Source: Balanoglossus misakiensis
Lineage: Eukaryota > Animalia > Hemichordata
Reading direction: 5' to 3'
DNA: 64,000 bases
Assembly: GCA_040954595.2 (NCBI GenBank)
Contig: CM082590.2
Span: 3,534,001-3,598,000, forward strand
Position numbers and translations under genes: made by a program. Position 1 is the stretch's first letter. Every line of letters begins with the position of its first letter. Positions 1 through 33,479 of the stretch are shown one piece after another. Under the pieces are notes generated by a model. The model worked only from the letters and a program-made list of their open reading frames with translations, made no database searches and was not told the origin of the DNA.

Positions 1-734
1 AATTTAAGAAGCAATGACAGAGTGCCTTGCTCAAAACACAAAACCACTGCCATGTCCAGACTCTCAGCCACAATCTCCAGTCTAGTCACCAGAGAATTGT
101 AACTCTAGCTTCTAAATACACACCTTTAGCCATTCAACTGCAACATCGACAAGGTTTTTTCCATCCTAAAATATAAAAAAGCAGATAAGAGTGCCTATCA
201 TTATTTTTTTATTTGGAAGAGAAGCTTTCTGTCAGGCCTACAGAAATGTTCACCTGGACAACTTGAAGTCGCTCGGCATGCCTTAGCATCCAAGAGCGTT
301 TAATGCTATAATGGAAAGGCACAGTAACACAATAGTTACTGCTTATAAGCTAGTCTTGCTGGCAACATCTAGAAACCTGCATCTATGTTTGGCTGAGGCC
401 ATGAGGGTAGACGCCGCAATTTGTGGTTGGCAATTGTCGGGAAAACATACTTATGAAGTTTGAAAATTTACTGACATACAGCAAAATATCATAGATGACA
501 TATCGCATTACGGTGGTGTATCGGAATCAGTATTTCACATCTTCAGAAAACATCACACAGTCATGTCTTGTGCTCTTACCCATTAGAACGTGTGTCCTAC
601 CAAGAATACCGTCTCTACGCATGTTTTGAAAAGCAATGACATGTATAAAGTGCATGGGTCAAAGACACAACCCCTTCATGTCTGGATTCGAACCCACAAA
701 TGTGTCGTCAACAGACAATTCTTTTTCTACGCAC

Positions 735-773: not shown

Positions 774-3010
774 CTAAAGAATCAAGAAGACAGATTAGAC
801 TGTTTTATATTTTTTGCACGACAATATGCCTCTCTTTAAATGAACAAAAATAAACGCCCAAAATAAATTACCAGTAGATGGAATTAATCTTAACTTTGTC
901 GCGCAGTTCTCATTGCATTGTGTACAATGACACAATTTTTTGGAGGATCCGAGATAGATGACACTCCTTTATAACACTAATGTCCACCACTGAAATACAA
1001 CTTTTTGTGAGGCAACCAAAAACATCTATTATTTGAAGAAAACTGCTCACATCAATTGTGGTATTTGCTGGCTGAACATGTCACAAAATGTCTCTTTAGG
1101 AAATTTTAACCTCAATTTTCTATGTGGCTTTTAGACCATTCATTTGCTCTTTTCCTCGGTTACAGATAATTGTATCACACTAGATCATTGTTGTTATGTG
1201 TGCAAATTCAATCATTTGAGTTTCAGATTAGTAAAGAATTGTGTCTTATTGTGCTGGCTGTAATCAGTTGCCATATTCATTCAAGTTTTTGTAAAGGAAT
1301 ATTTGCGAGGGGCGATAACCGACGACCTTTTTGCGCGCGTTGGCCACTTTTTTTCACATTAGGTACATGCATACCAATTTTCAAATCTATCTGGCAGTGG
1401 TTGTTGGGCATGAGTTTCTGAATTTTGACCAATTTCACATTTTCCCAGCTAATTTGCATATGTTTTCCATCTACAGGCCAGCATGCATCTACGCACAAAA
1501 TATCAAGGTGATACGCGCAGTGGTTTTTAAATTTTTGATGTGGACGGATATACAGTCATACTTGCCTTGTTGTGTATGTTGATATCAGCCTTGTATTCCA
1601 ACAGTAACCTCACTATATTCACATAGTCATTCCTTACTGCAACATGTATAGGCGTGTCGCCTTCCTGTCAAATATGAAGACACTATGAAATTCTCGGCCA
1701 GCGACTGTATAGACAGGAGAATAAAGCAAACGTGACGGGTAGCCCCACGCTTCACTGTGTAAACCGCGCCAGGGATCTACCTCACCGTTTACAGAAAGTA
1801 CGCCGATGCAAACTCATCACGACAATGAACCGCTGCTGCTTCACCCTAAACTTACGCGATTCTCAAATTACTTCCTCGTCAATATCGTCAAAATAAAAAC
1901 ATATCCCTTTGTTATCAGACATTTCAGGCATATTTTTCAAAATAACTTCAACGGGTGCGGGTGGGAAGAATGCAAATTGAACATACGATCCGACCCCAAT
2001 AAATTGTTTTTTTTTTCTAATCATCAAACTTTTCTGCGCCACACGCACAACACACGCACATTGTAACACACACAATACCTTCAAACGAAAACTTGTCCCC
2101 AAAGTGAAGCCACCAAAAATACTCAATCTATAACGCTTACATCACCTTCTGCACCGAGACTGGTTCTAACTTACCTTGTTTTGTATGTTGACAGAGCATT
2201 TGGCTTTCAGTAATAACAGTGCTGCTCCTTCCTGACCATAGTATGCTGCCAGGTGTATAGGTGTGTTACCATCCTGTAATACATGTATACAAAGAAATAT
2301 CAGACATCAACACTGTAGTACTAGTTAATGAATGTGGCATTCTTACGAATTGTAATAAGCATCCGGTACTTTTTCAGGCTTTATTTGAAGATTTACGTAA
2401 TAATGCACATTAAATAGAAAACTGTTGATTTCGTTATTTATTATTACAATACCTTTAATCAATAGTGATAAAATTTTCAAGGGGGACACAATGACAGTTG
2501 TTATGATTAATGGTTTATGTGTACAACAACCTTTACATCAGAGAAGCAATATTGTTTCCGATGGGTTGTTGAGAATGTTGCTACATAAATTTGCCTTATG
2601 TGTAAATGCCGGATATTTCACCAGTATGGGGAAAAGTGTCCTGCGGCTTAATCAGTCTATAATAGTATTGGACCGTAGGATAAATCTTAGGATTTTAGCC
2701 TTCCCGAACGAAAGTTTCTTAGATGTGGCCATTTTTTCAATGTCAAAGTCGAACATCTCAGTATCCCTTTACGAAAATATTTCAGTGCCTATGATGGCAT
2801 ATTTCAATCGATCGGTCGTTGATGGGGTGTTTTTACAGGACCTTGAAGGATTTAGCCTGGAGCAGGGCATCTCGATTCAACCCTTCTCGTTATTGTATAG
2901 AGGAGTGACGCTGGGCGACCATACAACGTTGGGCGATCTCCTTTAAAAGTTATTTACAACATCGACAACAACAGCAAGGAATGCTTCATTGTGTTTTAAA
3001 AATAATATTT

Positions 3011-3054: not shown

Positions 3055-6000
3055 TATTATTTCATCAACAAACAAACAATCACTGTCCACTGTAAGTTTA
3101 CAGCGATGCATGTGCAGATGTGACATGACTGCGATCGCCATGCAACCACAGGTAACTATTACGCGTGCGCGAGTGGCACTGTGTGCACACTCAAATCTCT
3201 CTATTTTGAGATAATCCGAACTGATATTTGGTGTCAATTCAAATACGCGAAATCGAACATTATAAGAGTTTGTTTAACGAAGTGAAATATGAGATGCACT
3301 TCAAGAGTACCACTGCTTTAACCCACCGACTGTACTGCTCAGATCCGTCTGCACTGAAAATGATATTCTTGTACAGAAAACAAACAGATGGAACACACAG
3401 TAGCTATTTCTACAAGGAAATGCCTTGTGTTAAATCATTTCTATACATTTGAAAACTGTTTCATCACGTTTTATGAACGGAGGAATCTTCACAAATCTAC
3501 TGTATGCAAACCACGCCTCTGGTTGGAATTTACTTGAGTATTGGAATGTGACAGTCGGGACAATTTTCATGGTTTTCTTGTGTTAAACTTTAAGCTCTCG
3601 TGGGGCTGAGACTGACATGAGACGGCATTACGATAGTGATAGTACGCGCACGAGCATCATTTTGTTAGTAGGACTGCCGCTTATAGTGAGGGCGGCGTAA
3701 CCAAAATTTTCATATCGAGTGGCTCAGATGCGTGTTTATGTGGTGATAGGGCAGTGTCCTTTGAGGGTACATTAACATCACAGCAATTCTTTTACTTGAG
3801 ATTTATGATACGTGCGTGTTTTTTTTTTCATTTGAAGATACCCTCAGTACAATACCTCAAACTGACAATGATCTAAATTTTATAAAAGCTTAGACAGCAG
3901 TTTCATTACCCCTTAAAAGAGCATTGGAATTAGCCAATCATAGAACGCCAATTATGAATGAAAGGTAAGAAATTTGCGGAACCACTATTGACATTCAAAT
4001 GATTATGGTGGACTTCAGCCAGACAACTTTTTTTAGTCTCGCCAGCCAGACCACTCTCTCTGTCATTCAACGGCATAGCCACACGAAGTGCGCCACCAGC
4101 GGTGAAGCCACAAGAATCGAGCATCGGAGACAGCGTCGCCGCTTGTGGCGCCCTTCGTGTGCCTGGCCGCGACTTCGACTGAAAGCGAGGTGATGACGGT
4201 TTATGAAAGAATCCCACTTTGTAGATTTTCGGTTGAAAAGTCATCCCAAGTGTTGGGATTTTTCCGTTGGAAAAGTGACCCTTCTGGGTGGCACATACCC
4301 GTACACCTTCCTATAGGAGTACCCCCCCCCCCGTCCCCGGGCTGTTGTGCAGGATACATGGCACCCCAACAATTTACAATTGTTTATTTTCGGAGCTTTA
4401 TTTCACTTCCCCGTTGTTACTGAAAGCTATTACACTACAGTTTGTTTAAATATAAAATAAATTTGTCATCGTGCATGTAGCAATAGTTCATGGTTACCCT
4501 AGGTCCCTAACTTTCCGGTCAAAAAGTTAACTATTGGTAGATTATTTATCGAACAATCTAATTACGAATTTCGATATGAACACTCTGATCCCAACCTCTC
4601 GAATTACTCGACGTTTTAATAAAATATTGCTTTATAGTGGTATGATATTCAAAAGTGAATTGGTTGGTCTCAAAAGAGATAAGAATTTAACTTGGCCGCA
4701 GGTATAGCCACGGTCCAAAAACTCTCCCTCAAACTCTTTCATACTCTGCATAATCCTATTATGCGTGTCGGTTTATTGCACTAGTTTCGTGATTGACATC
4801 CCGAAGGTTGTCAACGCTACAAAATATAAGTACAGAGTCACCTTTTTGGCCATTCGGGCTATTGGTGAGTGAACATGTAAAGCCACTTACATCATTCTTA
4901 GCATTGACGTCAGCTCCATGGTCAATCAACACTTGTGCCGCTTCCAGTTTATTTCCAACGGCTGTTGCATGCAATGCTGTCCATCTAGACTGAAATTGAC
5001 AAATTCATTTGAATTAAAATGAACACAAGCTTTGTTCCAATGTTGGACTTGTAAGGTGACACGGCTATAATTTCACTGGAATCGAATTGTAACTATAAGT
5101 GTTGACTTATATTATGAGTTAAATGTGTGTAGCATCTATAGTTGTTTCAGACCAAAACACTCTATTGTTTCAGAGAACATTTATAACGTGTCCTATAGAA
5201 TTTTCTAACAAGTGTAACACTATAAAATTCTAATATAATGTAGCGCAATATACATGTTTATGCAGACTCATAGGTGCAACAGGTCTTAATATCGTTTCAT
5301 AAATTACATTGATATGTTGAAATTTTCAATCACACCAAGTACTCTAACAGATAAACATGGCGAACGTATACCGGTACACCCGACACACACAATCCCCTGT
5401 TTCTCTGTTGATGTAAGTTAATATTTAGGTATAGCCTGCTATGAACCCAACGTTGGTACAGGAACACGTTCATCTCCACACATGTGTGTTTACTCAATCA
5501 AGTAATTTCTACAGCAAAGATATCCATCGAAGAGACAGAGGAAATAAATATTACAATCAATCAACAGCTGACCAACCTCAAAGATTCAAATCACGCCTGA
5601 AGAATACACTTGTAATACAAACACCACAGACTAAAGAAATCCGCACTTTTTGTTTATAAGGGCAATCAACGGCACTCTTTTCCATGACCAAATTCACCTG
5701 AATTTCGGTCAACTTACGACGCGGGATTTTCAATCTCTATGTTGTGTCGCTTTTGTGGTTTTAATTTGTTTGTAAACACTTTCATTTTTTATGACATTTG
5801 CAAACATCGATCTGGATTTGTCAATAACCTCGCCACAGACTGTTATACATGTTGTTGTGATAGGGCTCTGTCCTTTGAGGGTACATTAACATCACAAATT
5901 AGTATTCTTTTACTTGAGATTTATGATACGCGCGTGTGTTGTTTTCATTTGAAGGTTCCCTCAGTACAATACCTCAAATTGACGATGATCTAAATATTAT

Positions 6001-9000
6001 AAAAGCCTAGACAGCAGTTTTATTACCCCTTAAAAATGCATTGGAATTAGCCAATCATGGAACGCCAATTATGAATGAAAGGTAAGAAATTTGCGGAACC
6101 ACTATTGACATTCAAATGATTATGGTGGACTTCAGCCAGACAACTTTTTTTAGTCTCGCCAGCCAGACCACTCTCTCTGTCATTCGACGGCATAGCCACA
6201 CGAAGTGCGCCACCAGCGGTGAAGCCACAAGAATCGAGCATCGGAGACAGCGTCGCCGCTTGTGGCGCCCTTCGTGTGCCTGGCCGCGACTTCGACTGAA
6301 AGCGAGGTGATGACGGTTTATGAAAGAATCCCACTTTGAAGATTTTCGGTTGAAAAGTCCTCCAAAGTTTGGGGATTTTTCCGTTGGAAAAGTGACCCTT
6401 CTGGGTGGCACATACCCGTACACATTCCTATGGGAGAACCCCCCCCCCCGGCCTGTTGTGCAGGATACATGGCACCCCGACATTTTACAATAATTTATTT
6501 TCAGAGCTCTATTTGGCTTCGCCGTTGTTACTGACAGCTATTTTACACTGCAGTTTGTTTAAATATAAAATAAATGTGTCATCGTGCATGTAGCAATAGT
6601 TCATGGTTAGGTGCCTAACTTTCCGGTCAAAAAGTTAACTATTGGTAGATTATTTATCGAAAAATCTAATTATGAATTTCAATATGAACACCCTGATCCC
6701 AACCTCTCGAATTACGTGACGTTCTAATAAAATATTGCTTTATAGTGGTATGATATTCAAAAGTGAATTGGTTGGTCTCAAAAGAGATAAGAATTAAACT
6801 TGGCCGCAGGTATAGCCACGGTCCAAAAACTCTCCCTCAAACTCTTTCATACTCTTCATAATCCTATTATGTGTGTCAGTTTATTGCAGTAACACTGGTT
6901 TCATGATTGACATCCCAAAGGTCATCAACACTACAGTACAGTGTCACCTTTTTGGCCGTTCGGGCTATTGGTGAGTGAGCATGTAAAGCCACTTACATCA
7001 TTCTTAGCATTGACGTCAGCTCCATGGTCGATCAACACTTGTGCCGCTTCCAGTTTATTTCCCCAGGCTGCAGCATGCAATGCTGTGGATTCAGACTGAA
7101 ATTGACAAATTCATTTGAATTAAAATAAACACAAGGTATGTTCCAGTGTTGGACTTGTAAGGTGACATGGCTATAATTTCACTGCAATCGATTTGTAACT
7201 GTAAGTGTTGACTTATATTATGAGTTAAATGTGTGTAGCATCTATAGTTGTTTCAGACCAAAACACTCTATTGTTTCAGAGAACATTTATAACCTGTCCT
7301 ATAGACTTTTCTAACAAGTGTAACACTATAAAATTCTAATATAATGTAGCGCACTATACATGTGTATGCACACTCATAGGTGCAACAGGTCTTAATATTA
7401 TTTCATAAATTACATTGATATTTTCAAATTTTCAATCACACCAAGTACTCTAACAGATAAACATGGCGGACGTGATACACCCGACACACACAATCCCCTG
7501 TTTCTCTGTTGATGTAAGTTAATATTTAGGTATAGCCTGCTATGAACCCAACGTTGGTACGTTCAGTACATCAATGTTATAATTATTGAATGTTGCTAGG
7601 AAACATCAAAAAAAGAATTGTCTAAACCAATCTGGACATTTCTCTTAAATTTGTCTTTTTTAAAAGCGTTTGTAGTATCCATTGAATGGAACTGAAATCA
7701 CATATGTCTGGTTCACTGAATTTATGTGACAATCTTATTAAAATCAGATGTAGAGTTAGGCGTTGTCTTTACCTATGGTGATCATTTTGGCTGTTCTGTT
7801 CTCTGTCTTGGCGGTTCTCGGGTGGATGGTCCCTATCCGAACAGAAAAGCCAAGAATCAGCAATAGTAAAGACACCGCCTAACTCTACATCCGATATAAC
7901 CAGATAGTTTTGTGACAATCTGAGACGATCCCTAAGCTTACAATGGCACATAATGCATGGGACACATGCAATCACTAGTTTCCTTCACAAATAAAGATAT
8001 CGTCCAAATGGCAACTCTCCAGCCTGCAATGACACAGATTCCACATATTCTTCGGGTGTCCGCAAATGAAACATTTCAGCCCGGCCTTGTCACGACTCTG
8101 ATATTCTCCCTGTATTCCCCATAGACAAGCACTATGTCCTTACTCTGGCATTGTTCTATGTCCATCGAGGTACAATAACATGTTCATCTCCAATCATGTG
8201 TGTTTATTCACTCAAGTAATTTATACAGCTAAGATATCCATTGAAGAGCCAGAGGAAATAAATATTAAAGTCAATTAACAGCTGACCAACCTCAAAGATT
8301 CAAATCACGCCTGAAGAATACACTTGTAATACAAATACCAGAGACTAAAGAAATCCGCACTTTTCGTTTACATGTATAAGGGAAATCAACGGTACTCTTT
8401 TCCATTACCATATTCACCAGAATTTCGGTCGACTTACGACGCGGGATTTTTAATCTCTATTGTGTCGCTTTTGGGGGTTTGATTTTTTTTGTAAACACTT
8501 TCATTTTTTATGACATTTGCATCCATCTAGACTTGTCAACAACCGCGCCACAGACTGTTACTGGTCACAATATACAGATACTTTCATCCAACACTATGTT
8601 CTTATTCGTTTCGGTTTCAAATTTCTCTTTCTAACCTCAAATTGCAATAAGAGAAACAAAGGAGGAAACAAGCCTTATTGTTTGACACATGTTTTCTATT
8701 TCAAATGCATTAAGCTTGTATATGAAACAGAACTCATCACTCGGCATGAACTGAAAGCAGCAAATGCTCCAGCAAAGCCAGAGTTATGACCGTATGTACA
8801 TGTATACTCATACACATCTGAATGTCAAGTTTGCATTGGCTTTATGGCTGCCAAACAGAAAGTTTGTTTCAGGGTTTTGACAAATATCATTGGAGTAGGC
8901 AAGTGACAGGCGCACATCAGGAAACAAATTATGTCTCATGAAATGCAGGGATGGTGTGATTTTCAATATTACCTACAGTCATAAATTGCGACAACATGTG

Positions 9001-12000
9001 GTGGGAAGGTATTTAAAATAAAGTTGGGCATGACTACGGCAACACGTGGCAAAGGCAAGCCAAATTCTGACAGGAACATTGCGATCAGACTGTTGAACTT
9101 GTAGGGCTTCCCAACAGCCAGCAATCGGGACTTATCTAGTGAAGACATGGAAACGCAGCTGTTCTGCCGGGGGTGGGGGGTGGGGGGGGGGGGGAGATGC
9201 AGGGATTTAGTTACCCCCCCCCTCCCGGTGGAACAGCTGCATTTCCACAGCTACTGAAGATCCAACTCCGAAAAAGTTGGATTTTCAGAAATTTAATTCC
9301 ACTTTCCTCGTGCAACGGAAAATTCGGAACGTGTTTTGCTTTCCAAAAATCTACGCTGGACGCCCATTTGCGTAATACGCCCTTTACGGCAACAATAAAC
9401 TTTACCAGGAAACGCTTACACTAGATGATTTTATGTCTTCGTACAAATACAGAGAAATAAACTGTCAGGTTTAATTCCCGCTGAAATTTTTCCTTGCCTT
9501 TATGCAAAGTACAGAATAATTTTTCAAGACATCGACCGACCGCCTTATGGCAAGTGTCCACGGCTGTTTAGCCAACATCGCGAAACATAGATTTAGGCTT
9601 ATATTGAGCCTTTTTAAATCATGTTCCAACATTCCATAATTATACAAGACAGGCTGTCATTGTTAATCTGCTGAACTTGATCTCAAAGTCAATTGCTCTG
9701 AATGATTGATTTCTTTTTAAATCATGTTCAAAAACTCAATAATTATACAAGACAGGCTGTCATTGTTAAAATAGGTTGTAAAGTCTGGGTCGTTGGGAAT
9801 AAGGCAGAGGGATAGTCCTTAATTATTTATTTTTATTTACCTATGTTCAAAAATGTGTGTTATTGATAATAAAACGTGTCAACTGATGTATGAGTGCAGA
9901 ATAGAATGAGTGTCACTACAGTAACTTACGTTGGTCTGCACATCGACGCTGGCATTGGATTGCAGTAGAAGTTTCACCACGTCACCAGAGCCATTCCGTG
10001 CTGCTTTGTGTAATGGTGCCTCACCAATCTGTGGGAATACAACTGAAATGTGTCATTGAAAATCTCTCACTAGATTCTTGAAATTGAACACGCAATGTTT
10101 CATTAAGCATGCACTGAACATTCAATTTTGAGATGGCACAACATGTTTTGCCGAAACTTTGTTTTTTTGAGGGGGGGGGGATAAATTAATAGTAGGATAC
10201 ATCCCAGTCCCCCTACGCAATGGACATGAATGCATGATGTGGTGTTAGGGCTCTGTCCTTTGAGGGTACATTAACATCACAGGTATTCTTTTATTTGAGA
10301 TTTATGATACGTGCGTGTGTTGTTTTCATTTGAAGATGCCCTCAGTACAATACCTCAAACTGACAATGATCTAAATATTATAAAAGCCTAGACAGCAGTT
10401 TCATTACCCTTTAAAAGAGCATTGGAATTAGCCAATCATAGAACGCCAATTATGAATGAAAGGTAAGAAATATGTTAAACCACTATTGACATTCAACTGA
10501 TTATGGTGGACTTCAGCCAGACAACTTTTTTTAGTCTCGCCGGCCAGACCTCTCTCTCTGTCATTCGACGGCATAGCCACACGAAGTGCGCCACGAGCGG
10601 TGAAGCCACAAGAATCGAGCATCGGAGACAGCGACACCACTTGTGACACACTTCGTCTGCCTGTGCGCGGCGTCGACGGGTGGCGAGGTTTGGCGTTTCT
10701 TTAGAGTCAGTTTCATAACGGTAACTACATGATGACGGTTTATGAAAGAATCCCACTTTGTAGATTTTCGGTTGAAAAGTCATCCCAAGTTTGGGGATTA
10801 TTCCGTTGAAAAGTGACGCTTCTTGGTGGCACATACCCGTACACCTTCCTATGGGAGAACCCCCCCCCCCCCGGCCTGTTGTGCAGGATACATGGCACCC
10901 CTACAATTTACAATTATTTATTCTCAAAGCTTTATTTCGCTTCGCCGTTGTTACTGACAGCTATTACACCACAGTTTGTTTAAATATAAAATAAATGTGT
11001 CATCGTGCATGTAGCAATAGTTCATGGTTAGGTGCCTAACTTTCCGGTCAAAAAGTTAACTATTGGTAGATTATTTATCTAAAAATCTAATTATGAATTT
11101 CAATATGAACACCCTGATCCCAACCTCTCGAATTACGTGACGTTCTAATAAAATATTGCTTTATAGTGGTATGATATTCAAAAGTGAATTGGTTGGTCTC
11201 AAAAGAGATAAGAATTAAACTTGGCCGCAGGTATAGCCACGGTCCAAAAACTCTCCCTCAAACTCTTTCATACTCTTCATAATCCTATTATGTGTGTCGG
11301 TTTATTGCAGTGACACTAGTTTCGTGATTGACATCCCGAAGGTCGTCAACACTGCAAAATATAAGTACAGTGTCACCTTTTAGCCACTCGGGCTATTGGT
11401 GAGTGAGCATGTAAAGCCACTTACCACATTCTTAGCATTGACGTCAGCTCCATGGTCGATCAACACTTGTGCCGCTTCCAGTTTATTTCCCCTGGCTGCA
11501 GCATGCAATGCTGTGGATTCAGACTGAAATTGACAAATTCGTATGAATTAAAATGAACACAAGCTATGTTCCAATGTTGGACTGGTAAGGTGACATGGCT
11601 ATAATTTCACTGGAATCGAATTGTAACTATAAGTGTTGACTTATATTATGAGTTAAATGTGTGTAGCATCTATAGTTGTTTCAGACCAAAACACTATTGT
11701 TTCAGAGAACATTTATAACGTGTCCTATAGAATTTTCTAACAAGTGTAACACTATAAAATTCTAATATAATGTAGCGCACTATACATGTTTATGCAGACT
11801 CATAGGTGCAACAGGTCTTAATATCATTTCATAAAATTAATTACATTGATATGTTCAAATTTTCAATCACACCAAGTACTCTAAGTTCTAACAGATAAAC
11901 ATGGCGGACGTGATACACCAGACACATACAATCCTCGTGTTTCTCTGTTGATGTAAGTTGAAGTCTGGCCCGCTATGAACCCAACATTGGCATGGGACAT

Positions 12001-15000
12001 CTTGAAATTTTCAATCACTCCAAGTACTCTAACAGATAAACATGGCGGACGTGATACACCTGACACACACAATCCCCTGTTTCTCTGTTGATGTAAGTTG
12101 AAGTCTGGCCCGCTATGAACCCAATATTGGCATGGGACATCTTGAAATTTTCAATCACTCCAAGTACTCTAACAGATAAACATGGCGGACGTGATACACC
12201 AGACACATACAATCCTCGTGTTTCTCTGTTGATGTAAGTTGAAGTCTGGCCCGCTATGAACCCAATATTGGCATGGGACATCTTGAAATTTTCAATCACT
12301 CCAAGTACTCTAACAGATAAACATGGCGGACGTGATACACCTGCCACACACAATCCCCTGTTTCTCTGTTGATGTAAGTTAATATTTAGGTATAGCCTGC
12401 TATGAACCCAACGTTGGTACGTACGGTACATCAATGTTATAATTATTTAATGTTGCTAGGAAACATCAGAAAAAGAATTGTCTAAACCAGTCTGGACATT
12501 TCTCTCAAATTTGTCTTTAAAAAAAAAAACGTTTGCAGTATCCATTGTAGGGAACCGAAATCATCTATGTCTTTTTTTTTCAATTTTAAACTCTAAACGT
12601 TCTGGTTCACTGAATTTAACAAAAAACATAAAATGAAAATCGTGCAAATAAGTGTGAAAGTGGAATTCACTAAACAAATTGAATTCGCCCTTCTAATAAA
12701 CATAACAACTTTGTTTGTTGAATTTATGTGACCAATCTGATTAAAAACAGATGTAGAGTTAGGCATGGTCTTTACATATGGTGATCGTTTTAGCCGTTCA
12801 GTTCTCTGACTTGGCCGTTCTCGGTTGGACGGTCCCTTTCCGAACAGAAAGGCCAAGAATCAGCGATAGTAAAGCCACCGCCTAACTCTACATCCTATTT
12901 AACCAGATAGTTTTGTGACAATATGGGACGGTCTCTAAGCTTACAATGGCACACAATGCATGTGGCACATGCAATCACTAGTTTCCTTCACAAATAAAGA
13001 TTTCGTCCAAATGGCAACTCTTCAGCCTGCAATGACACAGATTCCACATATTCTTCGGGTGTCCGCAAATGAAACATTTCAGCCTGGCCTTGTCACGACT
13101 CTGATATTCTCCCTGTATTCCCCATAGACAAGCACTATGTCCTTACTCTGGCATTGTTCTATGTCCACCGAGGAACAGTATCATGTTGATCTCCAATGAT
13201 GTGTGTTTATTCACTCTAGTAATTCCTACAGCTAAGATATCCATCACAGAGCCAGAGGAAATAAATATTACAATCAATCAATCAACAGCTGACCAACCTC
13301 AAAGGTTCAAATCACGCCTGAAGAATACACTTGTAATACAAACACCACAGACTAAAGAAATCCACACTTTTTGTTTATAAGGGCAATCAACGGCAATCTT
13401 TTCCATGACCATATTCACCTGAATTCCAGATTGACTTACGACGTGGGATTTTTAATCTCTATGTTGTGTCGCTTTTGGGGTTTTAATTTTTTTGTAAACA
13501 CTTTCATTTATTATGACATTTGCATCCATCTAGAATTGTCAACAACCGCGCCACAGACTGTTACTGGTCACAATATACAGATAATTGGACATTTCATCCA
13601 ACACTATGTTCTTATTTGTTTCGGTTTCAAATTTTCTTTCTAACTTCAAATTGCTATAAGAGAAACAAAGGATGAAACAAGCTTTATTGTCTGACACATG
13701 TTTTCTATTTCAAATGCATTAAGCTTGTATATCAAACACAGGAAACTTTTGCATTCATCAATAAAGTCAAGGTCAAATATTTTGCCGCTTCAGATTCGTT
13801 ACCTGTGTGACTTGGTTGTACGTGTGAAATGTTGAGTGAGGCAGTGTAAATACTTACCACGCCACCGTATTCACCCTTTGCATTGACATCGTACCCATCA
13901 GTTATCAACGACCGAATCCTTGCAACATCACCATTCTCAGCGGCTTTAATGAGATCCTATAACATTCAGTGAAACATACAATTGTTATTTTTTAATTATT
14001 CCGTCAAATATAAATTTCTTCAGTATTTGAACTGATCTTCGATAATGAATAAACAAAATCACAAACACCAAGAAAGTGCACTGTTACATCACATTGTATA
14101 AACATTTTGCATCGATGATATGGTAACCCTTACGAAAAAAAATAGCGTCAAGGACACTGTGGTCCCATTTGAGGATTATGCGGAAACAGTGACACACCAG
14201 AATAACAATTACAGGCGACATTGCAAGCAGATATGATCGTAGGATATAGAAATATGGAATGTAACAAAATTAACAAGGAACATGCCCAATAAACTGTCAA
14301 ATTGCAAAGCAATCTGGCATGTGGTTTTAAAGAAAAAATATAGCTGCAAGCAGCAATAGCGGGCCCAAGCCAACATAGAACATAGCAACATAGCAAAAAG
14401 CATATCTGCTCTGGATGCCAAGATATGGAAAAGTAGGTCAAAGGTCACCTGAGGTCATGCAAAATTTGGGCAAGAAATTTTGACCCTATACTGGTCCATG
14501 TTCAACAAAAACCAAACCTACAGCCCTATTGGTTAGCCTGGAATTAGGTATGCACATAATTAATGAGATATGCAGGTGTCACAGGTGACCCATAATTTGG
14601 CTTTATTATTTTAGTCCCAACCCTCCAAACGCCAAGTCTGTACCTGCTCTGGATGCCAAGATATGGTAAAGTAGGTCAAAGGTCACCTGAGGTCATGCAA
14701 AATTTGGGCAAGAAATTTTGACCCTATACTGGTCCATGTTCCACAAGAACGAAACCTCTAGCCCTATTAGTTAGCCCGGAATTAGGTATGCACATAATTA
14801 ATGTGTTAAGCAGGTGTTACAGGTGAGCCCAAAAATTCGCCTTTTATTGTGGCCGCATTGTGCTTACTTACCAATAGACAGTCACTGTACAGGACTATTG
14901 CACAGACCAGAATTCCACGATAAGACGTGGACATAGCTTAACCATAGAGGTATAAGTAAAGGTATAAATTTAATAAAAAGACTAAAAAATTCATAAAAAA

Positions 15001-15724: not shown

Positions 15725-18700
15725 AAACACACTTTTTCTCTGCTTGAAAATAAATGAAGCAATATTAGATAAAAGGTTATTTTTACATCTTAAAAAACTT
15801 CCCACCTACACTATTTACGAAGGTGGTGTTCATGATTTAAGATAGTTATTTTGTTTACAATTGCTTTAAGAATTTCCAAATAATGTTGATTTTGCAATGA
15901 CAAAGCCTTTGCTTCAGACTCAGTGTACATTCCAGATGTAGCACGATTGAGAAATTGCAGTTTTTACCATGAAATATCGTACCTCTATGAAAAACAACTG
16001 TCAAATAAATTATCATTGGCCATTCAATGCACATACAAAGACGATCAGCTTCTATATTTAAACACGTTCACTCATGATTTAAACACAAGAAATGGATGCT
16101 TAGACACATGGCGATATCCTTGTAATAATGTCAGGACGTTTATTAATAAATCAATCCCGGTTAAAGAATGCAAACATAGTTCATTTCGTTGCAATATCCA
16201 ACAGTACAGACAACAAGTAACAGTAAATTTGCCTGGTGTTTAAAACTAAATGCGAGATGGTCATGAACGGAACTGAACTGACTCGCCGGCGCCCATTACA
16301 GCAACAATGAACAGTATGCCGTATGGACGGACGCGACTGACAACATGCAGCAAAGTCTAGCTAAAAGATTTACCTATCTTTTAACGATCAATTCATCAAA
16401 ACGGCAGCATCGCTGATGGTATAAAATCGCCCTTTCCGAATGGATGAGGATGATAAACATGTCTGACGAACACTGGGACCGCGACATAATCCTTAGAAGT
16501 GTTTACAACAAGAAAACCGTTAAAATATGGCGGGTGTACCTCGCGCATGCGCACAACGCTATTTTCGTGTCATAACCGGAAATAGAGCTCATAGCTATAA
16601 CATTGATCGACTGTGAGTTAGGATCGACTGACGATATTTATAGAAGAAAAATATGTAAAGTAGGATTTGAGTAACCATGAAATATACTCATTTTTTGGAA
16701 AAAAAAGTATGCTTTATTAAATGTAGGGATCTTGTACACTATACTGGGACCTAGCCTGGCCCCAGACCAGTGTTAAGAATTTCTATATATCTAAAACACA
16801 CTGGTCTGTGTGTATTATACAAGCTTGTCTGGGGCGGTTCACAAGCTGTATTCAAGCTTGTAATTTTAAGCCGTAATCTTATCCAAGCTTGTAAAACCTT
16901 TATACAAGCTAAAAGCTAGCATTTCAAAGTTGTGTCATCCTTGCAGCAAGCTTGTACAAGGTTGTGACATCTTGGTGACTTTCGTAACTAATCCACAAGT
17001 TCAATTTGAATAGTTATAAATATCAAATAATTTGCTGGTCTATCCTGGAATCAGAGCCAAAAATCTAACCTGGTCAACATTTAATTTGTAAAAAACTACT
17101 ATCCAATGTGCTTGTTTTGCTCACCCCTCATTGTCAGCAATGGTAGATCACATTTGCTGAATGTGTGGCTGGAGACCATAGGACAGCATAGCCATGTACC
17201 CGGTACTAACACTGGGCCCTGACAATCTCTTTGTACAGTGTAGTTGTGACCTTTAACCTATAGATTGCTTGGAAATCACAAGCTCATTCTGACCATTAAC
17301 AAGTTGCAGTGACTTCACAGCAACCGTTTTTATTTGCTGTAAATTCACTGCACAAGTTTGATTTGCTGTGAATTCTCTGCACAACATGTTTGGGGATTGT
17401 TCACTTTGCATTGAGTTTGCAGAATCCTGCAAACTTCTGCAAACCCTCAATCAGCCAATCTGCAAACTATATGCCTGCTGGGTATTGGCAGCAAACTCAT
17501 AACCATCTCCCAGCAAAAATATTTTTTCGTAAGGGAAAGTATTCTAATTACACATAAACGTACACGGCTTACACCAAAATATAGATACATGTACTGGAAA
17601 ATGCCCCGATGAGTCCATGAACTCATGATAAGGCAACGGTCTCAAGAGAACGGTGAAGAAATGAAATGAGAGTATCACTGTGAATGTTTGTCCAAACTGT
17701 GTGAGCAAGTTATTGTGTAGCTGTAGTAGTGTGTGGGTCATGCGAAGGCTTTGTATACCTGTTCGCTGATGTGCTTCCCAAGAAGCATTTTTGACTGTTT
17801 GATAGGGCTTGCATGATATCCATAAAAGAAACGTGAACAAGGTTATGGTCAATTGACTGTCCAACTACTCTATTGTTATAGTCTACAGATTTGGGATGTC
17901 GTCCTGTTGGTCAGAACATGGAATCCACAACCGACGGTCAGCAATGAACGGATAACACTTGTTTCTGTTGTGATCAGCCACAAAGTCACGGTTGACGTAG
18001 ACAAGCTGCTTTCTATCGGTTAGAATGTCTCACTTTTATAGTAGTTAACCATATGCGCATAGGGACTGGTCAGTTTCTTCGGCCGGGGGTGGATTCTATT
18101 TTGTGGATATCCAAAAGTGACTGACCGCTCCCCTCCTTCATTGACCATGCAAAATTGGATGACCCCTATCACCCAATTCCAAAACAGGGTGACCTCCCCC
18201 AGGCCAAAAAAAACTGACCATTCCCCTATTTCTTGATTTTTATGCCATTATTCTTTGGAGTTGTGGATAATTCACGCACGCGCACAATATCCCTTCATGG
18301 GAAAATGTGAATTTTTGTGAATTTTGAATGCGAATAATAAAACATGGTGCAGAAATTGCTGAAAGGAAACCATTCCATCGGTGAAATTCTGAACACAAAA
18401 TACTGGAATTCCAATTCTGTGATGAAAATATTGTTTATAAGTCAGTAGATATCACAACTTCATGTTTACACGCGCACCGATGTTATTGCATTTCTTTTGG
18501 GGTTACAACAAATATGTGTTCTTGGAGAGAGTGTTAGTGTAAAAAACGTCAAGGGGATAAATATTCATTGCTTTTTGTTGTTCCAAACTTAAGCGAGTGG
18601 TTTGGGGTCAACCGAAAATATTTGCATTTGACATGCCTCACGTCATGCATTATTTTCGTGATTTTACTATCAAAGTTCGGTTGGTTCATGTTTAAAAGTT

Positions 18701-20757
18701 TATAATAATAATAATAATAATTTATTTGTATAGCGTCAGTATCCACAAAAAAATGTGATCAATGACGCTTAAAGCAAAAGTACAATACAACAAATGGCTA
18801 AAAAACAGATTTAAAAAGTAAAGTTTTAACATTTGATTTAAAAACAGATAAGTCTGGTGCCTGGCGAATGATGAGTGGAAGATTATTCCAAAGAATTGGA
18901 GCAGCAACAGTAAAAGCGCGATCACCATAACTCTTGGTGCGTGATCGAACAGGGCAGAGTTTGAACTGATCAGCTGACCTTAAATTGCGACATGGAACAT
19001 ATAGATTAGTCATGCTAGAAAGATAGATTGGACCAAGTTTATGAATGGATTTAAAAATGAGAACTAACATCTTAAAAACAATACGCTCTGTAACAGGTAG
19101 CCAGTGCAACTGATACAAAATTGGAGTGATGTGACAGGTGATTTTAGAACGAGTTACAATTCTAGCAGCAATATTCTGAACGCGTTGGATACGGTTGATT
19201 GAATACTTCGGGAGCCCAAATAAAAGTGAATTACATGAATCAATTCGAGACGTAATGAATGCATGAACTAATTGCTCTGTAGCTGAATGAGATAAATATT
19301 TGCGGATAAGCGCAATGCGACGTAAATGAAAAGTGGCAGAGCGGCAGATCTGTCCAATATGTGGCTTCATTGTCAGACAAGAGTCAAGGATCACTCCAAG
19401 GCTCTTAGCCTGACAATGGACGGGAATCAGAGAATCGCCAACACGAATTTCTGAAATCCCTCTAGCAGACAGATCACCCAAAATACCAGAGAAAATAACA
19501 AATTCAGTCTTATCATCGTTTAAGCACAAGAAGTTTTCAGACATCCAAAACCTAACATCAGAAATACAAAGTTCAAGATTTGAAACAGTTCTTGCTGCGT
19601 TGTCTTTACTAAAAGACATATAAAGTGAAGAGTCATCTGCATAAAAACTATAAAGACAACCATGACTTTGAACTAATTCACCTAATGGAGACGTGTACAT
19701 ATTGAAAAGTATGGGACCAAGAACTGATCCCTGTGGTACCCCAGTGTCGAGCGGATAAAAAGGTGATTGGGTGGAATTTACAAGTACACACTGACTACGA
19801 TTGGAAAGGTATGACTTAAACCACATGAGAACAGTATCTGAGAGACCGAAGCTGTCTCTTAAGCGATTGAGTAAAATGGTATGGTTCACAGTGTCAAATG
19901 CTGCGGAAAGATCGAGTAATACCAAGAAAACATCTCTTTTTTCATCAAGAGCAAGCAAAATGTCATCAAGAGCAAGCAAAATGTTTACTCGTGAGTATGC
20001 ACACATATATCATCAACCTGTCGTTTCGTCTGTCAGCAAAGGATACGGAGAAGATTGAGTCAGCTCATGGGGAATTAATGATTATCCACGCCATGCCTGC
20101 GTCACCTTGAATGAACTCATTTCGGGTCAAAGGTTATCATCCTTTGATATGGCGTCAATCCAGACTGCCCCATATATAGACACATTGCTAGACATGGTTA
20201 CAAAGTAGGCCTGACACAGACATGGATTTCAATGGGTGTTTTATCTAAAGCTACAACTTGCTCATAAAATTGTGTTTACTTGGGACTTGCTCAACCGGTA
20301 AAATATTTTTTGAAAAATATCGCTCAATGGAGACTTTGACTTGTGAATGGAAAACATTATGATTAGTGTGACTTTTTTGTCAACTTGATAATTGTTTATT
20401 TATCAATGCACTATCTAGCAATACACACAGACACTAGAAGTTTCTATATTTTCCGTGTGTCGGGCAAGCTGATCCGTTGAAAAAAAAAACTATTAGACAC
20501 CGCCTAGCGCCACAAGTCTAAACGAAACAGTCATTTGTTTTGTGACCAAAATGTCTGGTTAAATTTACGTGCATGGAGTTGAAGGGAGAAATTTTGAACA
20601 ACAGTCCACAGTCCACAAAACAAACAAAATGTAAACCACTTGTAAAAACAGTCGTCGTACGCGTCACTGCCGGACATCGTTGCCCTTGGTGTGAAATGTC
20701 AGTTACTACAGTTAACAATTCGCTTACCTGTGGATCCTTAAATTTTCCGGAAGCCAT
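735..20757 (-). CDS. Multi-exon ankyrin-repeat protein gene (5' part; continues toward or beyond the window start). Exons 20728-20757, 13858-13956, 11425-11523, 9930-10028, 6997-7095, 4891-4989, 2175-2273, 1566-1664, 735-773
   Basis: Manual splicing of AG..GT/GC-bounded phase-0 exons gives one open frame: MASGKFKDPQ|DLIKAAENGDV..|SESTALHAAARGN..|IGEAPLHKAARNG..|SESTALHAAAWGN..|SRWTALHATAVGN..|DGNTPIHLAAYYG..|EGDTPIHVAVRND..|AGKTQMDLAADSK, matching the G-x-T-P/A-L-H..G-A-D-V-N ankyrin consensus. Confidence 0.85.
1290..1560 (-). mobile_element. Helentron/DINE-like non-autonomous element fragment
   Basis: Shares aggtacatgcataccaatttt..gtgatacgc..tttttgatgtggacgga with 15050-15270. Confidence 0.55.
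1566..1664 (-). CDS. Ankyrin exon EGDTPIHVAVRNDYVNIVRLLLEYKADINIHNK (GC donor)
   Basis: tgacag acceptor; exactly 99 nt ending at AAG|GCAAGT. Confidence 0.8.
2175..2273 (-). CDS. Ankyrin exon DGNTPIHLAAYYGQEGAALLLLKAKCSVNIQNK
   Basis: ttacag acceptor, GTAAGT donor, 99 nt, TPxHLAA motif. Confidence 0.9.
3011..3060. repeat. (ATC)n microsatellite
   Basis: Direct reading of the sequence. Confidence 0.95.
3739..5850. repeat. Ankyrin exon cassette copy 1 (internally deleted, right-truncated)
   Basis: Starts tgtggtgatagggc..cctttgagggtacattaacatcac; colinear with 5853-8728 and 10238-13737. Confidence 0.9.
4891..4989 (-). CDS. Ankyrin exon SRWTALHATAVGNKLEAAQVLIDHGADVNAKND
   Basis: atttcag acceptor, GTAAGT donor, 99 nt. 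Confidence 0.9.
5853..8728. repeat. Ankyrin exon cassette copy 2
   Basis: Near-identical to copies 1 and 3; ends at aaatgcattaagcttgtatat.aaaca. Confidence 0.9.
6997..7095 (-). CDS. Ankyrin exon SESTALHAAAWGNKLEAAQVLIDHGADVNAKND
   Basis: atttcag acceptor, GTAAGT donor, 99 nt. Confidence 0.9.
9930..10028 (-). CDS. Ankyrin exon IGEAPLHKAARNGSGDVVKLLLQSNASVDVQTN
   Basis: ccacag acceptor, GTAAGT donor, 99 nt, PLHxAA motif. Confidence 0.9.
11425..11523 (-). CDS. Ankyrin exon SESTALHAAARGNKLEAAQVLIDHGADVNAKNV
   Basis: atttcag acceptor, GTAAGT donor, 99 nt. Confidence 0.9.
11858..12420. repeat. 140/141-bp tandem repeat, about 4 copies
   Basis: cttgaaattttcaatcactccaag recurs at 12001, 12141 and 12282. 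Confidence 0.9.
13858..13956 (-). CDS. Ankyrin N-cap exon DLIKAAENGDVARIRSLITDGYDVNAKGEYGGV
   Basis: ttatag acceptor, GTAAGT donor, 99 nt; LxxAAxxG..G-x-D-V-N pattern. Confidence 0.85.
14127..17535. mobile_element. Non-autonomous CMC/EnSpm-type DNA transposon
   Basis: TIRs CCCTTACGAAAAAA / TTTTTTCGTAAGGG flanked by a 2-bp AA duplication; dense subterminal tgca-rich repeats including a 28-bp tandem at about 15535-15620. Confidence 0.75.
14142..15387 (-). mobile_element. Helentron/DINE-1-like non-autonomous element (composite) nested in the EnSpm left end
   Basis: Terminal hairpin ggtcccatgg..caatgggacc, matching ggtcccatt near the other end, (CATA)n microsatellite, A/T-run insertion site, internal 239-bp tandem duplication (14406/14645). 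Confidence 0.65.
18703..19985 (-). mobile_element. 5'-truncated L2/CR1-group LINE with open RT C-terminal ORF (stop at 18798)
   Basis: LLDLSAAFDTV, GVPQGSVLGPILF, YADD, LHWLPV motifs; 3' tail aataaa(tta)n at about 18703-18726. Confidence 0.92.
20728..20757 (-). CDS. Probable first coding exon of the ankyrin gene, MASGKFKDPQ
   Basis: atcATGG context, CAG|GTAAGC phase-0 donor that joins the N-cap exon in frame. Confidence 0.65.
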
Positions 20758-29819: not shown

Positions 29820-30882
29820 TGGCAATTCCTACGCAAGTTCTTTTTTCGGGACGGAGAGAGGATGATACTGACAAGTGCCATGTTTTAACTGGTCAGAAGT
29901 GTCTGGACAACGGACAACGCCCAACCAGGTGTGTCTTTCGCTGAGCTGGACGTCCTTGGGGAGCCACCCGGACTGCAGACAGACGGGAGCCAGGTCCAAG
30001 CGTCAACGGCGAGGAAAATTCTCTGCAGAGTGCCAAGTGGTGAAGTCGCTGAACTGTTACCGGCCGGAACTGTTTAGTGTGAAGTGTTCATCGCGGTATA
30101 CAAGGTATTGTGTGTCCAGAACTTGACAGTGTTATTCCGTGCGAACTATAGACAGTGCGCATAAATTCCGTCCGTGGCGCATAGTTTCCATCTGTGATAA
30201 CTTCGGACTTGAACTTGTGGACTGGGTATTTTATTGCAAACGAACTTTCTGGTTATTCGCTGTAGAACCTGGTGTAACGTAATGTTTGTAAATTTTTCTT
30301 AGAAATCTCAATATTGTCTATATAATGCAATGTGGTCAAAGTAGTTTTGACTTTGATTTAATTGTTGAAGTGGGCTCCATGTGGATATAAACCCATGTTT
30401 TGTTGCCTTTAGCCTGCTTTAAAAAAAAAAAAAAAAAAAAAAATATTTTCTTTCAACAGTATATTTTGGTTAAGTGCTGAAGTATAAATTTTCTTTGTAA
30501 ATTTCAGTTCATTATTTTCCAAACGACGTGAAAAAAAAAAAATTGTCAGCACTTGTTGAAAAAAAAAATATTAAGTTATAAGTTAAATATTGTATATTGA
30601 CTTGAGTTAGTTTATTATTGTATTAGTTATTTAGTTGTTTCATTATTATTGAGACTGTCCATGAATGGTCGTATTCATCCAAATCATACATTAGTCTCTA
30701 TAGAACCTTTGGCAGTGTCTGTAAGCTATTCTATGCTTATTTCATTCCCTGTTAACGTATGTGCTATGCCAGTAGATACTGATATTATTGTTAAGATTTT
30801 CCAGTGAAATAGCTTGCATTGCATCGTATTTAACGACACGTCAGAGTCCTCCCAAATTGCCTCTCATTTTCTGGGGAAAAGA

Positions 30883-31412
30883 ATGGCTGTGTCCAAAATA
30901 TCAATTCAAGAGCGAAGCATTTATGTGCAACACTTGCCTTTTGAATGTACAAAGAAAAATTTTAGTGAATTTATCGAGTTACAGCTTGGTTTGGCCCAGG
31001 TTGATCAAATTTATATTTCTGATAAAGATTCCGCTTTTGTCATATTTGAGAATATAGAATCAGCCACAGCCGCTCTGCCAGTAATACATAAAAGCACTTT
31101 TGAAGAAAGCAAATTACGGGCAAGTCGTGTGACCACAGCCCGAGGGTTGGAACTGTGGCATTTAATTGAGGAAACCGAACAAAGTACTGGCCTAGATTAC
31201 AATGAAACCAGTGATCCCAAGACATCCAAACCCAAAGCAGATGTACAGGAAATTATTAACATGTTGAGTTTACTGTCTGAAGCAGATAGGAAAGCGGTTG
31301 CACAGGCCATATCACCTGCTCCACTGAAACCAATCGTATCAACCCCTATGCCACAGCCGATTCCATTTCCAGCATTTCCAGTACCAACTTCAGTTGCAGA
31401 TTCCTCACCACT
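30883..31412 (+). pseudogene. Truncated gag with N-terminal RRM-like domain and Pro-rich linker
   Basis: SIYVQHLPF (RNP2-like) and SAFVIFE (RNP1-like); the frame runs into host sequence after 31412. Confidence 0.7.
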
Positions 31413-33479
31413 GAAAACTGCGTGTTCATCGTCTTGTTTTCATTTCCATGCAATTAATACAAAGACTGGTGACTATTTTGGAACACGTGTTATTTGGTTC
31501 CTAAATTATTTCAATACTCTTGCCGACCTACTTAGTTGATATACCTCTACAATATGTCGGTCATGTCACCTTGAGTGACTGAAGGTGTGTTTGCCTTATA
31601 CATTAACGTCCACACAAAGAATCTAAGCTTTGATTCTTTATCAATGTTATCATTAACAGGTACATTCAACGAGTGTCACCTAATTAAGCTTATACGTCAA
31701 ACTGTTTATCACTCATATGACAATGTGTGGTCTTAAGTGAGGTCACTTCATTGAAAATGAGAATCGTACGTGTCATTGTGGATTGGAGACAACAACCCAC
31801 ATTAAGTATTAAGAATCATCCTGAGCTATTGTACATATAATTGTACAATTTTATTTTAAGTTAACCCATGGTCGGTAATTATCAGGGCAAGTTAAACTTC
31901 AAATCTTAAAATCAACAACAAATCCCTTTCTCTTAAAATGGTTGCTGGGTAGTCCATACTTACACTTATCATTGGCTTAGGAGGCAAAACTGATATTTTA
32001 CATGATGATTTTACATATATATATTTATTGCATAAACATCATGTTATATTGTACATACAGGCGAACAAACCCTTTTTAATGTTAACCCTGGTCGAGAAAT
32101 ATCAGGGACCATATTAATTTTCAATCTTTAAAATTAGCAACAAAACTCTTTCTCTCTAAATGCTTGTTTGGCAGTTTATATACTTGCACCTATCATTGGA
32201 AAGTAGTGGTATATATTTAACGCGCGCGTATATTTTTTGAACACTATTTCTGTTTAAAAACAAACCTGGAGAAAAATAAGATCCCTGCCACGTTTATGTT
32301 TACATGTTTAGTGGCTGAATATGATCACGACACCTTACGTAGGATCATTGTGTAGAGCAGAGTGAAGAAATTTGACAAGAAGAAAGGAATTGGCATAAAT
32401 ATCTGTCGAGACAACACATGTATTTGATCAACTTAATTTTGGTCAATTCTCGGGGTCAACCTTTACCATAATAACGACAGTGTCTGATCAACTTTGTAAA
32501 TCCATGCACACCGGTCCATGTGCTTATTGCAATAACTAGTAAAGATCAACGCTATATTTCAACCCTCCAACTTTATACAATCTGTAATCACAATACTAGG
32601 CTTAACATTTGGTAGGGTGACTTCTAAAAATGTTTAGTTTAATGGCATTCTTCCTGTAGATAATTTTCTAGATACTCTGAAGTGAAGTATCGTCAAATTT
32701 GGATTTGTATTAGCAGGTCACTCATTGGTTAAAAGGTAACACTTCGTTTACATATTCTATCTTTTCAAATGTAAGTGTGATCATGGAAGAGAAATTTACT
32801 AAACACGTGTGGGCGATATCAAAATTAGCAATACCTCTATATTACATCCCCACAATAAAATGGTCGCGCCTGACTTGGTATTATCCTCTCACAGCGCTAG
32901 GCGCATGTAGTGGCAGACGAGTATGCATGTTGCTTAAACGCTCGTACGCGGCCATGGTCGCGTGTGACTTGGTATGATCACAGTTGTAAACGCACATGCA
33001 AGTTGCATAAACGGCAGTGCGCTGCCATGGCAACCATGATGCGGCATTCACCTATATACGACTGTACGATTCGCGTACATTATTGCCGTAAAGTTTGTTT
33101 CATCACATTTTCAAAGCTTTGGATGTCTGAATCATATAACGATAGTCTGATTATCTATGACTATTTCACTGATTCTCTTGTACAGCATCAGATAATAAAA
33201 ATAGTACGACTTATTTATTTGACATACCTGGCCAATATGTCGGCCATATTTAGAGAGGCATTTTCAAAATGATTGCTCAGTAGCACAGGTATGTTTTTCA
33301 ACAGGTGTTTTATCTCAAGCTATGACTTGTTCATACAGTTTAGTGACTCAAGGATTGTTTGGTGTGATTGATAAACTTCAATTACAGTAGTGTTAGCTTT
33401 GATTCTATCGTATCTGCTGAGATATATCATGATACGGTACATTCGACGAGTGTGGCCGGTTTATGTATTCTTTCACTGC

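Follow-up and report, generated by a model that had tools for sequence, protein, structure and literature searches.

Has an animal gene diversified the binding surface of its protein by copying one ankyrin exon? This question is raised by a locus of the acorn worm Balanoglossus misakiensis contained in the window, i.e. the whole stretch of 64,000 nucleotides that we analysed (assembly GCA_040954595.2, contig CM082590.2). A gene next to the locus likewise indicates an acorn worm. A sequence-only reading of this DNA had noticed three similar ankyrin exons, and had proposed that they are cassettes of a recognition gene diversified by duplication together with positive selection or gene conversion.

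Structure of the ankyrin gene

The gene lies on the minus strand, as do all the parts of it described below, and its exons follow the order A-B1-C-B2-B3-D-E-F. Seven of them are 99 nt long and in phase 0, so that each ankyrin repeat is encoded by one symmetrical exon. Exon A (13858..13956, bounded by AG/GTAAGT) encodes an N-cap-like repeat, the last five codons of which form the loop into repeat B. Exons B1 (11425..11523), B2 (6997..7095) and B3 (4891..4989) are copies 1, 2 and 3 of one cassette; all three are open, each has an AG acceptor and a GTAAGT donor, and the acceptor and donor cores are identical among them. The three copies originally noticed were real, base for base, but the three-exon picture was incomplete: exon C (9930..10028), a distinct repeat present as a single copy in the window, parts B1 from B2 and had been missed, as had exons A, D, E and F. 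Exon D (2175..2273) is likewise an ankyrin repeat with a single copy in the window, and exon E (1566..1664) encodes a repeat followed by a GC donor (AG/GCAAGT). A candidate exon F (124..165; 42 nt, phase 0), predicted from the sequence, looks like the beginning of a C-capping repeat; its reading frame is still open at the donor, and the gene thus likely continues past position 1 of the window. At the other end, a CpG-rich region (16200..16800, CpG observed/expected 1.1-1.2) may contain the promoter or a first exon, and a scan for start codons upstream gave many weak candidates, none of them decisive.

Six of the seven 99-nt exons, B1-B3 included, passed the Pfam Ank model PF00023 (32-41 bits; cut-off 21.1). 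The Pfam search gave no match for exon A, which was assigned to ankyrin clusters at 0.95 in the ESM Atlas. Searches of both strands with blastn and tblastn found no further copies of the six exon types in the window, nor inverted or non-coding repeat exons in the introns. The window, which the gene exits after exon F, contains neither a ROC, COR or death domain nor any other effector domain, and among the long open frames of the ORF list none upstream of exon A showed a NACHT or NB-ARC domain.

Single-exon searches found no close homologue of the gene. With exon B2, 476 of 638 candidates passed, and no recognisable orthologue was present among the best 120 of the 476; exon A gave 6,483 matches, of which the best 150 were generic ankyrin proteins. 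The highest identity for a single repeat was 70% over 27 residues among 270 fetched proteins, and a P-loop pattern occurred in 0 of 271 fetched proteins. With exon D, 1 of 13 candidates passed, a krill NF-kB-type protein that showed 60% identity across 63% of the query and was not accepted as an orthologue. ESM Atlas searches led to generic ankyrin clusters, the PDB search to DARPins and ankyrins only, and a metagenome pattern scan to 0 matches.

Mosaic structure of the duplicated cassettes

Self-BLAST and alignment delimited cassette 1 (B1 and flanking intron, 10237..11990), cassette 2 (B2, 5853..7560) and cassette 3 (B3, 3739..5459). Their pairwise divergence is 5.1-5.8%, and their identity by BLAST, with gaps counted, is 89-93%. 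The shared intron described earlier as near-identical over kilobases does accompany every copy; its extent, however, is about 1.7 kb per cassette and its identity, over the 1,584 columns without gaps, 94-95% (81-92 differences). The duplicated block begins downstream of exon C with a copied intron stretch (7717..8729), 91% identical to 12719-13738 in the intron following exon A. Another multi-kb duplicated block is found at 22-43 kb of the window; the three sub-block pairs compared contained no clean coding exons, and it was unusable as a control.

Each cassette has deletions and junctions of its own, exon C is interleaved with them, and the intronic similarity switches partner along the cassette. 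A runs test on 127 intronic sites gave 56 runs against 85 expected (p<1e-4), and p=0.0009 when adjacent sites were merged. The cassettes share tracts in a mosaic pattern, as gene conversion or unequal crossing-over leaves behind, and with p<0.001 in both forms of the test these results uphold the cassette duplication and exchange originally proposed.

Sequence change at the predicted binding face

Alignment reproduced exactly the reported differences among the copies. B1 and B2 differ at 3 of 99 nt, in codons 11 and 33; B2 and B3 at 10 of 99, eight of them in the residue-changing codons 2, 3, 9 and 11 and two silent; and B1 and B3 at 12 of 99. The scaffold said to be invariant was so, codons 12-32 encoding the same residues in all three copies. 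In the ankyrin numbering that we take to apply, the changed residues occupy positions 2, 4, 5, 11 and 13, three of the five being positions randomised in DARPins; the other two (4 and 11) belong to the framework. The register behind this assignment, already part of the sequence-only reading, was supported by ungapped alignment of exon B to solved DARPins (PDB 6mol and 5le2), where residues vary opposite codons 3, 11, 12 and 31. Nine of the ten changes private to B3, one of those nine silent, fall within its first 33 nt, and this patch could be a single conversion tract. Dense patches also arise outside the exon, since B1 carries an intronic one with 10 changes within 33 columns.

Taking the neutral expectation from the intron rate of the three cassette copies (131/1,584), the six DARPin-randomised codons (18 nt) contain 8 nucleotide changes against 1.5 expected (Poisson p=1.6e-4), about five times the rate of the introns, and they also differ from the remaining 81 nt of the exon (Fisher p=2e-4). 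They account for 4 residue replacements where 1.15 were expected (p=0.029), whereas codons 13-30 have none against 3.45 expected (p=0.032). When each changed codon was scored as one event, p was about 0.05. Comparing exon with flanking intron, as had been suggested, thus gave an excess at the six randomised codons but not over the whole exon (13 changes vs 8.2, p=0.07), where pN was not above pS (0.113 vs 0.149 for B1/B3; 0.092 vs 0.131 for B2/B3). The selection signal in the window alone is site-restricted and modest.

Variation in public contigs of another sample

The public data consist of short contigs from one other sample, which may be a pool and whose variants may be alleles and not paralogues. 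Over a stretch without a second copy in the window, this sample differs from our sequence at 16 of 527 nt (3%). Within the 99-nt exon lie 29 of the 31 variant rows listed, in a table biased by the requirement of 2% of summed depth for a call, a depth that reaches its minimum in the exon's variable central part. Variable places comprise 11 of the 18 nt of the randomised codons vs 10 of the other 81 nt (p=4e-5), and of the 14 alleles with a share of at least 10%, 12 change the residue when taken as single steps. In exon B, codons 11 and 12 (ankyrin positions 13 and 14) have multiple alleles, encoding at least five and at least four residues, respectively, with several alternative bases per place; manual reading of loose contig ends extended these lists by E and F at codon 11 and by A and N at codon 12. 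Common alternatives exist at codons 8, 32 and 33, and codons 13-30 hardly vary. B-type exons that are 13-14% different occur in two long contigs (1,836 and 2,328 nt) with unlike flanks, so that donors for conversion are available.

In run X3 the coverage was confined to the exon (6998-7096), and the loose ends enter exon-A-like and exon-C-like coding sequence. Judging from its contigs, no RNA source being listed by record, these exon-exon joins likely represent spliced transcripts; they run from an A-type into a B-type exon and from a B-type into a C-like one, and no join was observed that involves B2 or B3 in particular. In two joined X3 contigs, read by hand, exon A differs in its last five codons, the loop being wholly replaced beside 15 identical nt. 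No contig among those listed spans the whole array.

As far as these sequences can tell, positive selection at the binding-face codons is likely. What held of the original claim is that change concentrates at these codons and that the same codons are multi-allelic in public data; counted per event, the signal is marginal (p 0.03-0.05), and over the whole exon pN is not greater than pS.

Alternative explanations

The same pattern might be produced by neutral turnover, the cassettes duplicating in a repeat-rich, duplication-prone region and swapping patches with older paralogues while surface codons, unlike the scaffold, merely tolerate change; selection for new binding would not be required. 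The unremarkable pN, the non-significant whole-exon excess and the per-event p of about 0.05 fit this explanation, and so do the single tract formed by the B3 changes, the equally dense intronic patch of B1, the second multi-kb block at 22-43 kb and the diverged donors. Relaxed constraint, however, caps change at the neutral rate, yet the six codons evolve at about five times that of the introns; conversion tracts should bring silent and flanking differences with them, whereas the public variants concentrate on codons 11-12; and the exon A loop was wholly replaced, over five codons, next to identical sequence. On this balance we consider neutral turnover unlikely, albeit far from negligible.

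Much less probable is that B2 and B3 are unspliced passengers of an intronic duplication, either pseudo-exons or a reservoir, and that the protein is A-B1-C-D-E-F. Both kinds of join found in X3 would be consistent with it, none being specific to either copy, and a precedent is provided by the Ectocarpus ROCO introns, in which non-coding repeat exons are described (PMC3341825). The identical splice cores and open frame of all three copies speak against it, as does the lack of replacements in codons 13-30 (p=0.032). Even more improbable, in our judgement, is an assembly artefact in which the divergent haplotypes of one highly heterozygous individual were joined end to end. The 3% by which the other sample departs from the window is near the cassette divergence, and the array is spanned by no listed contig, but three copies mutually 5.1-5.8% apart exceed what two haplotypes can supply, their divergence is greater than the 3% figure (p 0.01-0.05), each copy has its own deletions and junctions, exon C lies between two of them, and the similarity switches partner along the cassette.

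Proposed model

On the whole, we favour, with moderate confidence, the reading of this gene as a one-repeat-per-exon ankyrin array with one exon-plus-intron cassette present three times, likely a member of a multi-copy family for intracellular recognition in acorn worms whose predicted binding-face residues have likely been selected apart. A block with exon B, at most some 3.5 kb long, was copied twice and placed downstream of exon C, and the tracts shared among the copies bear the signature of conversion or unequal crossing-over. Because all the exons are in phase 0, any combination of them stays in frame, and the reading frame survives the gain or loss of a cassette. In the family, as represented by the one other sample, codons 11 and 12 of exon B and the exon A loop vary and codons 13-30 hardly change; as the variable positions are predicted to line the concave target-binding surface, the variants may differ in binding, and selection for new specificities may keep them. 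The array probably forms the sensing part of a candidate ankyrin-ROC-COR-death-domain protein, which would signal on recognising foreign or altered molecules.

A germline-only version, i.e. a fast-evolving family of immune sensors, is a tentative proposal that we place just short of an even call. We think it improbable that acorn worms possess an anticipatory recognition system, a natural DARPin library of an invertebrate deuterostome in which single-repeat exons of a large family are swapped between loci and, inside a single individual, joined in different combinations through splicing or somatic rearrangement. Should the family prove to be an immune sensor, a diversified class of receptors would be added for the sister group of the echinoderms, and evolution would be seen to alter those ankyrin positions that protein engineers choose for randomisation, together with a longer variable loop.

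Comparison with known systems

No paper on an animal ankyrin version of repeat-exon shuffling was listed in searches of CC-licensed PMC and bioRxiv papers, and the closest known systems are the brown-algal LRR-ROCO genes and the fungal HIC NLRs. In brown algae, candidate immune receptors are described as undergoing repeat-exon shuffling and having a few hypervariable binding residues (PMC3341825; Teng et al. 2024, PMC11378527). The acorn worm gene has in common with these ROCO/NB-ARC genes the encoding of one repeat per exon, the local duplication of exon-plus-intron blocks with recombination, and a few variable sites on the binding face, the immune role being a candidate one in both (PMC3341825, PMC11378527). 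It differs in its host, an animal, and in its exons, which encode ankyrin repeats (99 nt) instead of LRR (72 nt) or TPR; moreover, inverted or broken intronic copies were not found within this window, nor is a ROC domain visible there, and the case for selection relies on three copies and contig variants instead of site models.

The fungal HIC NLRs contain near-identical WD40, ANK or TPR repeats with a few hypervariable positions under diversifying selection (PMC13449251, PMC10197012). Repeats homogenised by unequal crossing-over or conversion are common to both systems, and ANK versions occur in fungi (PMC13449251, PMC10197012). In contrast to the fungal genes, internal conservation is confined here to a single repeat type (B) amid divergent repeats, every copy is accompanied by some 1.7 kb of intron, and no NACHT/NB-ARC was seen. 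With the DAPK1-like ankyrin-ROC-COR-death proteins the gene shares an N-terminal ankyrin array and an intron-rich structure; those proteins carry ROC, COR and death domains, whereas this gene is known from the ankyrin exons of the window alone.

Finally, as in DARPins, a fixed ankyrin scaffold carries residues that vary in the beta-turn and in helix 1 (PMC8229355, PMC6590788). No comparison with DARPins was found in the main text of the wheat Lr14a paper (PMC7878491). DARPins are engineered libraries (PMC8229355, PMC6590788), whereas the acorn worm case is one of germline variation, in which positions 1, 4, 10 and 11 are variable as well and a longer loop that varies is contributed by exon A.

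Structure of the ankyrin gene and its cassettes

The ankyrin gene, which runs on the minus strand toward window position 1, is likely a member of a multi-copy family. Its repeat exons are frame-neutral, a cassette has been duplicated recently, the copies have exchanged sequence, and variation is concentrated on the predicted binding face. The three exon copies placed by the sequence-only reading at 11425, 6997 and 4891 were confirmed as minus-strand exons of 99 nt in phase 0 with AG/GTAAGT borders (B1, 11523-11425; B2, 7095-6997; B3, 4989-4891), and the nucleotide and residue differences listed for them were matched exactly (3 per 99 nt for B1/B2 and 10 for B2/B3); B1 and B3 differ at 12. That account overlooked five further minus-strand exons: the N-cap-like exon A (13956-13858), exon C between B1 and B2 (10028-9930), D (2273-2175) and E (1664-1566), all of 99 nt, and the candidate exon F (165-124; 42 nt), which reads into its donor in an open frame. 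The Pfam Ank model was matched by six of the seven 99-nt exons (B1, C, B2, B3, D and E) and not by exon A. Exon E has a GC donor (AG/GCAAGT), and its intron would be of the GC-AG type if the gene model is right. A scan within the window did not find the start codon; as a candidate, the promoter may lie in the CpG-rich stretch at 16.2-16.8 kb. The gene likely extends past window position 1, and any C-terminal domains would then lie beyond the window. Upstream of the CpG-rich stretch lies a LINE-type reverse-transcriptase frame of 403 codons (RVT_1; 18798-20009, minus strand).

Each B exon is embedded with its flanking intron in a minus-strand cassette (B1, 10237-11990; B2, 5853-7560; B3, 3739-5459), the introns differing pairwise at 81-92 of 1,584 gap-free columns (5.1-5.8%). 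The source stretch 13738-10237, from directly after exon A to directly before exon C, is present again downstream of exon C in two copies, each partly deleted (8729-5853 and 5845-3739); the duplicated block is thus not a simple tandem. No additional, inverted or broken copies of ankyrin exons were found within the window. The intron upstream of B1 also contains a 141-nt tandem repeat in 3.5 copies (11887-12380); a single unit of this repeat is present in the cassette of B2 and in that of B3.

Variation at the predicted binding face

We take the randomised positions of DARPins, which are engineered libraries, to be ankyrin 2, 3, 5, 13, 14 and 33, which correspond to exon B codons 33, 1, 3, 11, 12 and 31, respectively, a register checked by ungapped alignment of exon B to PDB DARPins. 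Six randomised positions are described in PMC6590788. The exon-versus-intron comparison proposed earlier upheld an excess in these six codons (18 nt), with 8 changes where the intron rate predicts 1.5 (p=1.6e-4, rising to about 0.05 when each codon counts as a single event), and not across the whole exon, whose divergence among the three copies does not significantly exceed that of the introns (p=0.07); the remaining 81 nt had 5 changes against 6.7 expected. Residue replacements numbered 4 in the six codons (1.15 expected, p=0.029) and 0 in codons 13-30 (3.45 expected, p=0.032). Nine of the ten B3-private changes, one of them silent, fall within the first 33 nt of the exon, 10 changes are likewise packed into 33 columns of the B1 intron, and pN does not exceed pS in either B3 comparison (B1/B3, B2/B3). 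Selection is beyond what the three window copies alone can decide.

Sequence of this region is present in three public runs of one sample (X1, X2 and X3; shares of sampled words, 0.36, 0.34 and 0.13); all three were guessed to be DNA and none is registered as RNA. Over a stretch of 527 nt that has no second copy in the window, the sample and the window differ at 16 nt; the sample therefore comes from a different animal, from a pool or from a close relative. Contigs aligning to B2 plus 40-nt flanks numbered 78, 167 and 5 across the runs. Exon B holds 29 of the 31 listed variant rows, and variable places make up 11 of 18 nt in the randomised codons against 10 of 81 elsewhere in the exon (p=4e-5), in a table (threshold, 2% of summed depth) biased toward the variable middle because depth is lowest there. 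When only shares of at least 10% are counted, variable places number 8 among the 18 nt and 5 among the 81 (p=2e-4), and 12 of the 14 alleles were non-synonymous as single steps. In codons 11 and 12 every base is variable, and at four of the six there are two or three alternatives, a multi-allelic state independent of the depth bias. In the hand-read loose ends among those listed, codon 11 encodes E, F or R and codon 12 encodes A, N or E; together with the window copies (R, W and V; G) this gives at least five and at least four residues, respectively. Common alternatives also occur at codons 8, 32 and 33, and at least two long contigs among the pieces listed carry B-type exons 13-14% different in unlike flanks. 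At window position 7061 the base giving Glu at codon 12 accounts for 100% of X1 and 86% of X2 depth, contig depth not being equated with copy number; the Gly of all three window copies is a minority state by comparison, and fits a recent common origin or homogenisation of B1-B3.

Likely transcripts and alternative explanations

Coverage in X3 is confined to the exon (6998-7096), with zero depth in both flanks, and four of its five contigs fit only partially. Two loose ends on the 5' side agree with the final part of exon A over as many as 15 nt, followed by five changed codons (KYLFL and SCYGW; EYGGV in the window), and one on the 3' side is an ankyrin start closest to exon C (21 of 29 nt by hand count), from which it differs at ankyrin positions 3, 5, 6 and 10. 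Since these ends are exon-exon joins, X3 most likely contains spliced transcripts from members of the family, with processed retrocopies as the alternative. The joins support the exon order A-B-C, and they show that the variation extends to exons A and C. They do not demonstrate inclusion of B2 or B3 of this locus; that these two are unspliced passengers seems improbable to us.

The odd-one-out copy among the cassettes switches block by block along the alignment, with near-identical blocks, each at another place, for B1/B3 (1 of 198 columns differing), B1/B2 (1 of 195) and B2/B3 (2 of 200). The 127 intronic sites form 56 runs where 85 would be expected (p<1e-4, or p=0.0009 once neighbouring sites are merged). 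Such a mosaic is characteristic of conversion or unequal crossing-over, bearing out the gene conversion suggested before, and is hard to obtain from two mis-assembled haplotypes, which makes an assembly artefact a very remote prospect. Neutral turnover with conversion would accommodate the mosaic and the undistinguished divergence of the whole exon, and we regard it as possible although rather unlikely; the concentration of variation in the randomised codons leads us to favour, with some reserve, diversifying selection on a putative recognition surface. Single-exon homologue searches returned, among the matches listed, generic ankyrin proteins only. By itself the window locus is a real, modest example, strengthened by the family-wide variation and likely expression.

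Other features of the window

The intron-less cluster at 54271-64000 comprises a PC4-domain ORF (54271-55008), an integrase and chromodomain ORF (55439-56593), an A32-type ATPase ORF (61136-61831, minus strand) and ORFs without a Pfam match (56554-57093, 57812-59170, 59158-59691 and 59949-60800), and we take it to resemble a Maverick/Polinton-type element. Gene exons at 49177-51014 (minus strand) encode a repeated cysteine-containing domain in two copies 69% alike. The sole homologue of such an exon among 121 candidates was an uncharacterised Glandiceps talaboti protein (56% identical, 318 aa, without a Pfam family), whose hydrophobic ends suggest that it is secreted and possibly GPI-anchored. 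This match makes an acorn worm the likely source of the window. A large nested duplication occupies 22342-43048, where 22.8-29.1 kb recurs at 34.3-40.9 kb (89-95%) alongside older 68-74% copies and internal tandem arrays of 117, 190 and 195 nt; clear coding exons were absent from the three sub-block pairs compared. The 243-codon frame at 30808-31539 (plus strand), with an RRM-like match (E=1.4e-4), is possibly a retroelement ORF1 remnant.

Comparison with known systems

One repeat per exon is not in itself unusual in animal ankyrin genes. Among the hits listed by searches of the open-access literature, none described hypervariable ankyrin cassettes from an animal; supplements may contain lists of animal ANK-ROCO genes. 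The closest known system is that of the brown-algal ROCO and NB-ARC genes, with shuffled LRR or TPR exons. In contrast to these, the window has neither inverted intronic exon copies nor an effector domain, and the repeat type, ankyrin, and the host are both different.
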